NCBI RefSeq assembly: GCF_017348835.2
Contig: NZ_CP071375.1
Length of the DNA: 64,000 bases
Origin: Escherichia coli
GTDB lineage: Bacteria > Pseudomonadota > Gammaproteobacteria > Enterobacterales > Enterobacteriaceae
Direction: 5' to 3' (one strand)
A model generated the notes under the pieces. It saw only the letters and a program-made list of their open reading frames with translations. It was not told the origin of the DNA and ran no database searches. Shown here piece by piece: positions 5,018 through 52,960 of this stretch. Position 1 is the stretch's first letter. Each line of letters begins with the position of its first letter. Made by a program: the position numbers and the translations under genes.

Positions 5018-5200
5018 TCGCATCAGGCATTTATCGCCTGATGCGACGCTGGCGCGTCTTATCATGTCTGGGATTTGATGCCTTTATCACAACAGGGACG
5101 AGGCCCGTAGATCGGATAAGGCGTTCACGCCGCATCCGGCGGTTGCGCTCCGATGCCTGATGCGACGCTGGCGCGTCTTATCAGGCCTACAAAGGCATAC
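5018..5200. repeat. REP/BIME cluster (several palindromic units, gcctgatgcgacgctggcgcgtcttatcaggcctac type)
   Basis: Imperfect palindromes with REP consensus repeated in alternating orientation between convergent ygfZ and yqfA. Confidence 0.75.
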
Positions 5201-34743: not shown

Positions 34744-34797
34744 AGTTCACGGCTTTTAATATTAATGACGACCAATAAAATTACAGATGGAACTGAG

Positions 34798-35841
34798 ATG
34801 ACATTCAAACACTTTTTACTTTCTCTGGTATCAGGATTACTTCTGATATCTTCCCACAACGTTGCCGCTGAAAAAATTCTTCGTTATACAGACCATGAAC
34901 CCTACGGGGGAATGCGTACACAAATAATTAAAGAGATATTTTTTGCAGAAATTGAAAAAGAGTCGCAGGGGCGTTTGAAAATCGAACCACACTGGAACGG
35001 TGAAACCGCCATCAGCTATGACGCTCTGACGACAATAAGTGATGGTAGCAAAGCTGATATGGGTATAGTGGTACCGGAATACACAGCGAAACAATTACCG
35101 CTTCATCAAATCTTCAAGAGCTTTGCTATTGGCCCGGATCATGGAGCCAGTCAGGTAGAATTCTTTCGTCGCTTATATGCGGAAATTCCCGAATTTAACG
35201 CTGAACTTGAGCGTAACAATATCGTGAATTTACAGTTTTTCCTTGGCTACCCGGTAGGCTTTTTCTCTACCAGGCCCATTGATAAATTGACTGCACTTCA
35301 GGGAACCACCTGGCGAACAGCCAGTTTCTGGCATCGGGCTTATTTAACTCATACGGGGGCAAAAACCGTAACCTTACCGTGGAATGAGCAAATTACGACA
35401 GCACTCCGCGACGGACAACTCGATGGCTTAATGGTCAATCTTGATAGCGGATATGACATCCATGCTGAACGTGCTGCGCCGAATGTGTTGCTCTCCCCTT
35501 CGCTCTGGCTTGGTCATGTTTATCTGTTGGTAATGAATAAACAAACGTGGGAAAACCTTGATAACAGAGATCGTGAGGCTATTCAACAAGCGGCCATTAC
35601 AACCGAGAAAGCGCTGGGCAAGGCATTAGATAACAACCTGATCAGCATGGTAAAAACGCTTGAGCAGGAAGGTGCACAGGTTCGCTATTTGAAAAAATCA
35701 GAGCTGGACGCCTGGCAGAAAGCGATTGGTTATCAGCAAGAGCAAACGCAGTGGGTAGAACAGCAAAAAACTGAAGGCGTGGATAATGCCGGGGAAGTCA
35801 TGCAAAAAGTTGCCAATATACTTGATGAAACAATGCGTTAA
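34798..35841 (+). CDS. TRAP-type periplasmic solute-binding protein, DctP family (orphan: no DctQ/DctM nearby)
   Basis: Signal peptide MTFKHFLLSLVSGLLLISSHNVAA then DctP-like blocks (EIEKESQGRLKIEPHW; LQGTTWRTAS...GAKTVTLPWNEQITTALRDGQLDG); ORF track start 34765 adds 11 unlikely residues. Confidence 0.65.
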   Translation: MTFKHFLLSLVSGLLLISSHNVAAEKILRYTDHEPYGGMRTQIIKEIFFAEIEKESQGRLKIEPHWNGETAISYDALTTISDGSKADMGIVVPEYTAKQLPLHQIFKSFAIGPDHGASQVEFFRRLYAEIPEFNAELERNNIVNLQFFLGYPVGFFSTRPIDKLTALQGTTWRTASFWHRAYLTHTGAKTVTLPWNEQITTALRDGQLDGLMVNLDSGYDIHAERAAPNVLLSPSLWLGHVYLLVMNKQTWENLDNRDREAIQQAAITTEKALGKALDNNLISMVKTLEQEGAQVRYLKKSELDAWQKAIGYQQEQTQWVEQQKTEGVDNAGEVMQKVANILDETMR

Positions 35842-35882: not shown

Positions 35883-36758
<876 letters not shown>

Positions 36759-36939
36759 TCAATATTCCTTTTCAACTGACTCAAAATGGAGAAATACACT
36801 CCGCCGCCTTATGACGGGCAGTCTGACAAGGGTAAACAATAAAGCATAATTTTGCCAAATAGATCACAGATTTCTCATCTGCATCACCTTGCTTTTGGCG
36901 AAAAAAAGACCCGCAGAGCGGGGCTCAGACAGATATCAA

Positions 36940-37055
36940 TGTGCGCTTTGTCATGCCGGATGCGGCGTGAACGCCTTATCCGGCCTACAAAAACCTGCGA
37001 ATTCAATATATTGCAGGATACGTGTAGGCCTGATAAGCGTAGCGCATCAGGCAAT
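36940..37055. repeat. REP/BIME elements
   Basis: gccggatgcggcgtgaacgccttatccggcctac and gtaggcctgataagcgtagcgcatcaggc palindromic units. Confidence 0.65.
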
Positions 37056-37057
37056 TT

Positions 37058-37092
37058 TTCTTTTGGCAAAAAAAAGACCCGCAGAGCGGGCC
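37058..37092 (-). terminator. fbaA rho-independent terminator (a second near-identical copy lies at 36892-36925)
   Basis: Minus strand cccgctctgcggg hairpin followed by 8 T, about 25 nt past the fbaA stop. Confidence 0.55.
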
Positions 37093-37116
37093 TTGAGATA
37101 AGCAGAAAGGAATGAC

Positions 37117-38196
37117 TTACAGAACGTCGATCGCGTTCAGTTCCTGGAATGCTTTTTCCAGACGAGCGATCATCGAAGTCTGACCGGCACGCAGCCATAC
37201 GCGCGGATCGTAGTATTTCTTGTTCGGCTGATCTTCGCCTTTCGGGTTGCCCAGCTGGCCCTGCAGGTAAGCTTCGTTCGCTTTGTAGTAGTTCAGAACG
37301 CCTTCCCAGGTTGCCCATTGGGTATCGGTATCGATGTTCATTTTCACTACGCCGTAGCTTACGGAGTCTTTGATTTCCTGAGCAGTAGAACCGGAACCAC
37401 CGTGGAATACGAAGTTCAGGCTGTTGTGCGGCAGGTTGTGTTTCTTAGAAACATATTCCTGAGAATCACGCAGGATGGTCGGAGTCAGAACCACGTTACC
37501 CGGCTTGTAAACACCGTGTACGTTACCGAAGGAAGCTGCGATGGTGAAACGCGGGCTGATTTTGCTCAGCTCGGTGTATGCGTAATCAACGTCTTCCGGC
37601 TGGGTGTACAGTGCGGAAGCGTCCATGTGGCTGTTGTCCACGCCGTCTTCTTCACCACCGGTGCAACCCAGTTCGATTTCCAGAGTCATGCCGATTTTGG
37701 ACATACGCTCCAGGTATTTAGAGCAGATTTCGATGTTCTCTTGCAGAGATTCTTCAGACAGGTCGATCATGTGAGAAGAGAACAGCGGCTTGCCGGTAGC
37801 AGCGAAGTGTTTTTCACCCGCGTCCAGCAGACCGTCGATCCACGGCAGCAGTTTCTTCGCGCAGTGGTCAGTGTGCAGGATAACCGGAACACCATAATGT
37901 TCAGCCATCTGGTGAACGTGATGCGCACCAGAGATCGCGCCCAGGATAGCAGCACCCTGCGGAACGTCAGATTTCACGCCTTTACCAGCGATAAAAGAAG
38001 CACCACCGTTGGAGAACTGAACGATAACCGGCGCTTTAACTTTAGCAGCGGTTTCCAGTACGGCGTTGATGGAGTCAGTACCGACGCAGTTTACTGCTGG
38101 CAGTGCGAAGTTGTTTTCTTTTGCTACCTGGAAAACTTTCTGTACGTCATCACCAGTGATTACGCCAGGTTTTACGAAATCAAAAATCTTAGACAT
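37117..38196 (-). CDS. fbaA: fructose-bisphosphate aldolase class II
   Basis: 359 aa from ATG 38196 (MSKIFDFVKPGVITGDD...). Confidence 0.95.
   Translation of the reverse strand: MSKIFDFVKPGVITGDDVQKVFQVAKENNFALPAVNCVGTDSINAVLETAAKVKAPVIVQFSNGGASFIAGKGVKSDVPQGAAILGAISGAHHVHQMAEHYGVPVILHTDHCAKKLLPWIDGLLDAGEKHFAATGKPLFSSHMIDLSEESLQENIEICSKYLERMSKIGMTLEIELGCTGGEEDGVDNSHMDASALYTQPEDVDYAYTELSKISPRFTIAASFGNVHGVYKPGNVVLTPTILRDSQEYVSKKHNLPHNSLNFVFHGGSGSTAQEIKDSVSYGVVKMNIDTDTQWATWEGVLNYYKANEAYLQGQLGNPKGEDQPNKKYYDPRVWLRAGQTSMIARLEKAFQELNAIDVL

Positions 38197-52764: not shown

Positions 52765-52960
<196 letters not shown>

Follow-up and report, generated by a model that had tools for sequence, protein, structure and literature searches.

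Two copies of the fbaA terminator flank a BIME-1 element in the Escherichia coli fbaA-mscS spacer

In the window, the 64-kb stretch of E. coli DNA analysed here, the spacer between fbaA and mscS carries the same intrinsic terminator module twice, and between the two copies lies a BIME-1 (RIP) element. We conclude that BIME-1 most probably inserted at a single ancestral fbaA terminator and duplicated it, leaving the spacer with terminators in series, and we put the probability of this reading at roughly 0.85. Whole-BIME-1 presence or absence among isolates is already known, as is the proximal terminator from published 3'-end maps, and the fbaA locus itself is ordinary; hairpin duplication as a regular signature, as described below for further loci, is possibly a new property of a known element.

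The direct repeat and the element between its copies

The gene for class II fructose-bisphosphate aldolase, fbaA, occupies positions 37117-38196 on the minus strand (37117 being the final base of the stop codon), and its downstream neighbour mscS follows on the same strand at 35883-36758, both identified from the list of open reading frames and BLAST-hit annotation. The gene order on that strand is pgk, fbaA, mscS. The K-12 fbaA coding sequence is 1080 nt long, and the same 359-aa protein is found, identical, on hundreds of contigs. The MscS encoded in the window has 291 aa and a different C-terminal tail compared with the 286-aa protein of K-12. Beyond mscS, on the opposite strand, lies a gene of the DctP family (TRAP transporter binding protein; 34765-35841, plus strand), where most genomes with the same FbaA have a LysE-family gene on the mscS strand instead.

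A repeat search of positions 36700-37200 returned a single direct-repeat family in the 358-nt fbaA-mscS spacer. The proximal copy, the primary intrinsic terminator of fbaA, lies at 37057-37093 (the feature extends to 37094) and reads TTTCTTTTGGCAAAAAAAAGACCCGCAGAGCGGGCCT on the plus strand; the distal copy, the duplicated terminator module, lies at 36889-36925 and reads TTGCTTTTGGCGAAAAAAAGACCCGCAGAGCGGGGCT, and the mscS upstream region starts immediately past it. Each copy is 37 nt long, 34 of the 37 positions are identical and the spacing from start to start is 168 nt. With up to three mismatches allowed, the 21-nt core of the repeat, AAAAAAGACCCGCAGAGCGGG, matches the 64-kb window at these two places and nowhere else, and it did not appear once in 100 dinucleotide-preserving shuffles. 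The first-pass annotation of this DNA had described two near-identical units around a REP pair; the repeat is real, its units measure 37 nt rather than the 30 nt first given, and the starting positions assigned to them were off by 1-3 nt.

That the two units resemble each other by chance, or by convergence of independent terminators, has a negligible probability. All that speaks for it is that terminator hairpins are GC-rich in general, but the identity spans the loop, the U-run and 12 nt outside the hairpin as well, the shuffles yielded nothing comparable, the outgroup spacers described below are single-copy and the indel that separates E. coli alleles equals exactly one repeat period, and this reading is thereby already refuted. 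A mirror-image origin, in which inverted copies would be reflected about the centre of the BIME, was also rejected: the two copies agree in the orientation of the AGA loop, of the A-run and of the 12 non-palindromic nt, and at tkt, satP, ysgA and a further locus, L090, the loops likewise share one orientation. Open reading frames of 70-144 codons cross the repeats and REPs (36852-37115 and 36889-37101 on the plus strand, 36884-37318 on the minus strand); they show no gene-like signs and are by-products of the repeat sequence.

The interior of the repeat is, on its sequence, a BIME-1/RIP element, which by alignment with paralogous copies extends over 36926-37056 and reads from A to B along the plus strand. 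A complete A arm (36926-36954) is followed by the Y REP (36955-36988), a 35-nt L linker (36989-37023) and the Z1 REP (37024-37053), and a remnant of the B arm begins at 37051 and continues into the proximal repeat copy; the repeat search also detected the inverted-repeat arms of the REPs. The two REP palindromes that had been placed between the copies at first pass were thus recovered as Y and Z1, which are inverted relative to each other and align with three paralogous BIME-1 copies. GGCCTAC closes the Y unit and GTAGGCC opens the Z1 unit, and the REP-doublet region folds as RNA with z = -4.8. The linker matches the BIME-1 L motif AATTCAATATATTGCAGGA exactly and includes, at 37001-37013, a putative near-consensus IHF site (ATTCAATATATTG) in agreement with WATCAANNNNTTR at 8 of 9 specified positions. 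In the published architecture, which goes back to Gilson, Bachellier and Hofnung, to Boccard and Prentki 1993 and to Oppenheim 1993, BIME-1 is a single unit consisting of Y, an L linker with an IHF site and Z1, and the L linker binds IHF (as summarised in Ton-Hoang 2012).

BIME-1 copies number about 70 per E. coli genome. Paralogous copies at tkt-prohibitin, fepA-entD and satP-mog show about 90% identity over about 120 nt, and among 5,426 complete E. coli genomes the strains that do not have the fbaA copy still match the 131-nt interior elsewhere to the same extent (about 90% over about 120 nt). The repeated element reaches past the REPs into a left arm, TGAGACTGATGACAAAGTGCGC..., and a right arm inverted relative to it, ...GCGTTTGTCATCAGTCTCA, which we take to be the A and B motifs of BIME-1 in the sense of Gilson and Bachellier. 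Only GCAATTTTTCTTTTGGCA is present of the right (B) arm in the window, its outer 9 nt being replaced by host sequence. The window contains a single, extragenic BIME-1 unit between fbaA and mscS; tandem doubling of the element in this spacer was seen only in Escherichia sp. E1V33.

The Rfam model RF02751 (ES036/CssrF 'sRNA') scores 42.5 bits on the linker (36989-37031, plus strand), above its gathering score of 37.6, which suggests that this 43-nt model captures the dispersed BIME-1 linker repeat and not one sRNA gene. Weaker Rfam matches that stayed under the gathering score, among them naRNA4 fragments, mir-944 and GcvB, were dismissed as REP cross-matches or chance. Two more REP units of a longer, Z2-like type lie in the window at 5155-5190 and 52842-52877 (both plus strand), and the BIME-1 linker is absent from both.

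Ancestral state and alleles of the spacer

A scan for MscS in one genome per species gave 80 loci, 56 of which have fbaA directly upstream; 52 of these are from outside Escherichia. In all 52 non-Escherichia Enterobacteriaceae species a terminator-type hairpin begins 17-27 nt (median 22) past the fbaA stop codon. It is the sole terminator-type hairpin in 44 of the 52 spacers, which also contain no REP core, and in the remaining eight a second, unrelated hairpin follows at a greater distance from fbaA; a duplicated fbaA terminator was found at none of the 52 loci. These spacers are mostly 186-192 nt long, as is the short allele of E. coli (190 nt). The outgroup spacers show that a single terminator and no BIME is the ancestral state of the family.

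Comparison of the same spacer across E. coli strains, which the first-pass annotation had proposed as a check, revealed a 168-bp presence/absence polymorphism. A 761-nt query is matched in full in long-allele genomes and over 593 nt in short-allele genomes, and the difference of 168 bp corresponds to the BIME plus one repeat copy; in the alignment, Nissle 1917 and CH10508 have one repeat copy joined precisely to both flanks. Since what is absent is the BIME together with exactly one copy, the insertion duplicated the resident terminator. About two-thirds of E. coli genomes are long (K-12, BL21 and O157:H7 among them) and about one-third are short (for example Nissle 1917 and ST131), the locus-specific BIME interior being present at an identity of at least 95% in about 3,700 of 5,478 matching records. 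The earlier suggestion that the distal copy is a duplicate created by a REP-associated rearrangement therefore holds, given one terminator and no REP in other genera and the absence of exactly 168 bp in a third of E. coli. By itself this is a modest result, which explains a common length polymorphism beside a core glycolytic gene.

E. whittamii shares this insertion, junctions included, and has a decayed distal hairpin; in Escherichia sp. E1V33 the element is present twice and the terminator three times, at a period of 168-170 nt (contig L010, 960-1500). The short allele, on the other hand, is found in E. coli strain E69, a representative of a divergent Escherichia lineage, and in the species-representative E. 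coli genome. In a tree of the flanking coding sequences, for which a Citrobacter sequence serves as a crude root only, long and short alleles both occur in the E. coli clade and in the clade of E. whittamii, E69 and E1V33. This mixing across both clades implies either repeated precise loss or transfer from lineage to lineage by homologous recombination, and as both clades are polymorphic with identical junctions, short E. coli alleles may be secondary precise deletions.

We propose that, in an Escherichia ancestor, BIME-1 (RIP) would have inserted at a lone intrinsic terminator 3' of fbaA, and that the insertion would have duplicated a 37-bp terminator module comprising the hairpin, the U-run and 12 further nt, with one copy coming to lie on each side. 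The fbaA-side copy would have kept the ancestral position and would perform most of the termination. Any benefit of the other, mscS-side copy would lie, we infer, in its acting as a second, weaker terminator or as a hairpin that protects 3' ends, catching readthrough across the BIME. The direct repeats would make the insertion reversible or expandable through recombination or slippage, which would account for alleles with 0, 1 or 2 elements.

The polarity of change within the species, and only that, would be different if the BIME with its two terminators were the older state within E. coli and the B2-type short allele had lost the insertion precisely at a later time, the 37-bp repeats having undergone RecA-independent slippage or recombination with help from the palindromic element. 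We give this course somewhat less than an even chance. The identical-junction insertions in E. whittamii and E1V33 fit with it, as do the departure of presence and absence from the flanking-gene tree and the variation in copy number (0, 1 or 2) at both fbaA and tkt, which shows that the repeats recombine. However, the copy in the short allele has none of the distal-specific changes, although a crossover to the left of these would leave no trace, and homologous recombination that carried the long allele from one lineage to another would produce the same pattern. An excision scar with a remnant of the B arm (TTGCTTTTGGCG resembling TTGCGTTTGTCA) was considered for the short allele and set aside as the principal reading: the divergent strain E69 has the same sequence and no BIME, and other genera carry a related ..TTGCC..TTCAA.. 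at that place.

RNA 3' ends at the two copies

In a terminator scan, both repeat copies are terminator-like sites on the minus strand, the strand of fbaA, each with a hairpin and a U-run. The proximal stem-loop, AAGGCCCGC-UCU-GCGGGUCUU (37094-37074), has a 9-pair stem with 6 GC pairs and a 3-nt loop and leads into a U8 run (37075-37068); its RNA fold is predicted at -14.1 kcal/mol, with z = -3.0 against shuffles. The distal copy consists of the core hairpin CCCGC-UCU-GCGGG (36922-36910; 5 pairs) and a U7 run (36907-36901), followed by CGCCAAAAGCAA. With its 5-pair GC core, the distal copy of the window folds at -9.9 kcal/mol (z = -1.1), no better than shuffles, and this weakness is due to a C x U mismatch; the distal variant of K-12 has 6 GC pairs and a fold of -11.6 kcal/mol. 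The proximal copy of the window has two private changes (TTTCTTTTGGCA). For the full read-through RNA (36885-37116, minus strand) the predicted minimum free energy is -82.2 kcal/mol (z = -4.8), and in the modelled fold the proximal 5' arm would pair with the distal 3' arm and enclose the whole BIME.

We compared these sites with published Term-seq 3' ends of MG1655 on the minus strand, obtained in LB at OD 0.4, LB at OD 2.0 and M63 (Adams et al. 2021, PMC7815308, Supplementary file 1), and anchored the coordinates on the K-12 fbaA stop codon at 3070165. Ends at 3070119/3070118 are classed as 'primary, fbaA' in all three conditions, with 160,555 (LB 0.4), 54,607 (LB 2.0) and 120,854 (M63) reads (PMC7815308). 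They are the fifth and sixth U of the proximal run, corresponding by homology to about 37071-37070 in the window, and the K-12 proximal copy has an identical hairpin and a U-run that is one base shorter. A further end at 3069950, classed as 'orphan', has 44,902 reads and is listed in LB 2.0 only (PMC7815308); it is the last U of the distal run, at about 36901 in the window by homology. Distal reads thus amount to 82% of proximal reads in LB 2.0, a figure that belongs to the K-12 allele and not to the variant in the window, and one to which termination and exonucleolytic trimming back to a hairpin may contribute alike. In K-12, fbaA transcripts end mainly at the proximal copy, and in stationary phase a sizeable fraction ends at the distal copy, past the BIME. 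The 3'-end mapping that the first-pass annotation had called for therefore places ends at both copies, where ends at neither would have spoken against its view, and its assignment of the proximal copy as the fbaA terminator is supported by the MG1655 ends in the U-run together with the hairpin at the same place in 52 species. Most E. coli, including K-12, would accordingly end the fbaA transcript at two related terminators, and B2 strains at one.

The 5' arm of the distal hairpin has a G to C change, which in most alleles is accompanied by a matching T to G change in the 3' arm (GCGGGGA or GCGGGGC). GCGGGGA is present in 23 of 23 metagenomic distal copies and in six of seven long-allele genome contigs, the seventh having GCGGGGC, whereas the distal allele of the window is the uncompensated GCGGGUC-U7. 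With their U-runs, most E. coli distal alleles read GCGGGGA-U6, and the one GCGGGGC-U7 forms a perfect 9-pair stem. These stem differences, with the two private changes in the proximal copy of the window, suggest compensatory evolution or gene conversion between the copies.

These observations bear on whether the distal copy is a functionless, neutrally decaying by-product of the insertion and its mapped 3' end only a place where exonucleases stop. We lean against this possibility, which nevertheless deserves some weight: the hairpin is destroyed in E. whittamii and weak in the window, the 3' end passed curation in one of three conditions, and a third of E. coli genomes manage without the copy. 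Against it stand the restoration of the stem in most E. coli alleles, where C x U has become C-G, the retention of the U-run in every E. coli allele seen and the high share of distal reads in LB 2.0. The compensatory stem change in most alleles, together with the K-12 3' end, are signs that the distal copy is maintained and is more than a relic.

Hairpin duplication at other BIME-1 loci and comparison with known systems

When metagenomes were scanned for the linker pattern, 120 contigs representing about 11 distinct BIME-1 loci were obtained. Full-length elements away from fbaA were compared on L004 (tkt-prohibitin), L006/L208/L209 (satP-mog), L092/L210 (ysgA-metE), L095 (katE-chbG), L089/L090, L204, L206 and L213. 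For each locus we scored the repeat between its left and right flanks and compared it with 110 flank pairs taken across loci, the highest of which scored 11.0. At 6 of the 11 loci the flanking direct repeat exceeds all cross-locus pairs: fbaA (22.5-29), tkt (22), ysgA-metE (15), katE-chbG (15), L090 (11.5) and satP-mog (11.5). At all six, the repeat is a local GC hairpin that directly abuts the arms of the element, and the repeat lengths (19, 19, 20, about 20, about 19 and 37 nt) follow that of the hairpin at each site. The remaining loci show no flank repeat; they either have no hairpin at the site, as at fepA-entD, or contain elements from which one or both arms are absent.

Empty sites with a single hairpin were confirmed at four loci, namely fbaA, satP-mog, ysgA-metE and tkt-prohibitin. 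The element occupies satP-mog in 467 genomes but not in K-12, ysgA-metE is likewise empty in K-12, and at tkt-prohibitin the number of elements is 0, 1 or 2 (or more), depending on the allele (L004, 270-720; L213). A fifth pair, katE-chbG, was discarded as uninformative, the spacer of its allele without a BIME being unrelated. Nissle 1917 has the element at satP-mog and not at fbaA, K-12 has it at fbaA and not at satP-mog, and the insertions at these loci are therefore independent events. The duplication at satP-mog, ysgA-metE and tkt takes in the hairpin (19-22 nt) alone and leaves out the U-run; the hairpin copy that comes first is thus parted from its U-run, and the BIME joins the 3' UTR upstream of the terminator that survives. 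At fbaA the orientation of the element with respect to the gene is the reverse of that at these three loci, the repeat extends over the U-run and another 12 nt, so that both copies are complete terminator modules, and a 37-nt repeat is combined with a truncated B arm in place of 19-22-nt repeats and full arms. BIME-1 insertions would thus routinely rewire 3' ends, either by detaching the U-run from a hairpin or by creating a second terminator.

As to how the duplication was made, we infer a possible route in which BIME-1 favours the hairpins of intrinsic terminators, the strands are broken at opposite feet of the hairpin and gap filling duplicates the whole hairpin, and we offer it as a doubtful proposal. 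The hairpin may extrude as a cruciform, perhaps to be cut as a REP look-alike by a dimeric REP-associated Y1 transposase, and the size of the target duplication would then follow the structure of the target and not the enzyme. Candidate routes would include, besides breaks at both feet of an extruded hairpin with gap filling, a copy-choice switch and the retention of a hairpin flap in lagging-strand synthesis. A wider stagger could explain why fbaA has a 37-nt repeat and a truncated arm, and so could conversion or slippage at a later time, involving the arm TTTTGCGTTTG and the similar host sequence TTGCTTTTG. If the hairpin-foot reading were true, BIME-1 would systematically be placed in 3' UTRs or create doubled terminators, by a mode of integration undescribed for IS200/IS605-type elements.

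A copy-choice error in place of an insertion reaction appears unlikely to us. The nascent strand would leave its template past the terminator, copy a BIME-1 elsewhere with the aid of short homologies, re-enter upstream and copy the terminator again. Hairpins and palindromes do stall replication, and fbaA offers homology at the junctions, the native CGCCAAAAGCAA resembling the BIME arm TGACAAACGCAA at 9 of 12 positions and the native ATCTCA before the hairpin resembling the arm end GTCTCA. Full arms abut the hairpins at satP-mog, ysgA-metE and tkt with no comparable homology, however, and re-entry would be needed exactly at the foot of the hairpin every time.

The REP/BIME family of elements dates from the 1980s. 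How its members spread is still described as unknown (Ton-Hoang 2012). In the full text accessible to us, which does not extend to key papers of the 1990s, no terminator-hairpin duplication around BIME-1 is described. Among the closest systems are RAYT (TnpA-REP)/REPIN and IS200/IS605-like transposition, with which the present element shares a REP doublet with GTAG/CTAC feet, the presumed substrate of a Y1 HUH enzyme. The Y1-transposase model for the movement of REPs and BIMEs involves no flanking target repeats (Ton-Hoang 2012). This predicted repeat-free insertion is not what we find, as the repeats measure 37 nt here and 19-22 nt elsewhere and the empty sites are single-copy, and no known transposition chemistry gives duplications of hairpin length, the RAYT/IS200-IS605 model producing none. 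A hairpin duplicated around BIME-1, with four filled/empty pairs and 6 of 11 loci, is therefore a signature that falls outside what the prevailing model of single-strand transposition predicts.

Target-site duplications of insertion sequences and MITEs are alike in that direct repeats lie just outside inverted terminal arms and one copy is present when the site is empty. Those made by transposases are typically 2-14 bp long, whereas the length here is far above this range and is that of the local hairpin, not one fixed by an enzyme. Spacer integration by Cas1-Cas2, in which the repeat is attacked at both borders of its palindrome and duplicated by gap filling, may be likened to the present case in so far as an insert comes to lie between two direct, palindromic host copies of about 20-37 bp. 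The insert here is a repeat element of 130-145 bp and not a 33-bp spacer, however, and there is neither a leader nor an array; we rejected integration of the Cas1-Cas2 type itself, as nothing points to the involvement of Cas proteins and the analogy is functional only.

Among BIME-1 elements themselves, 'excision of a whole BIME-1' among natural isolates has been recorded (Bachellier et al. 1997 Genetics 145:551, as cited by Chiapello et al. 2005), and strain-variable loops account for 71% of BIME-1 length (Chiapello et al. 2005). The fbaA element is likewise wholly present, in about two-thirds of genomes, or wholly absent, in about one-third; at four loci, this one included, the empty site retains a single copy of the flanking hairpin repeat, which may go beyond the polymorphism recorded in 1997. 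It agrees with the BIME-1/RIP family in its inverted Y and Z1, its L linker with an IHF-type site, what is present of its outer arms and its extragenic position at the 3' end of a transcription unit. It departs from the family in the truncated B arm, which merges into duplicated host sequence, and the flanking 37-nt duplication of a host terminator lies outside the family definition.

Finally, the arrangement resembles tandem 'fail-safe' intrinsic terminators, of which rrnB T1-T2 is an example, in having two signals of hairpin and U-run in series with RNA ending at both. Unlike T1 and T2, the two fbaA terminators share one sequence and are separated by 168 nt and a mobile repeat, one being a copy of the other, and in the reading that we prefer the pair would have come from one insertion event and not from independent assembly.
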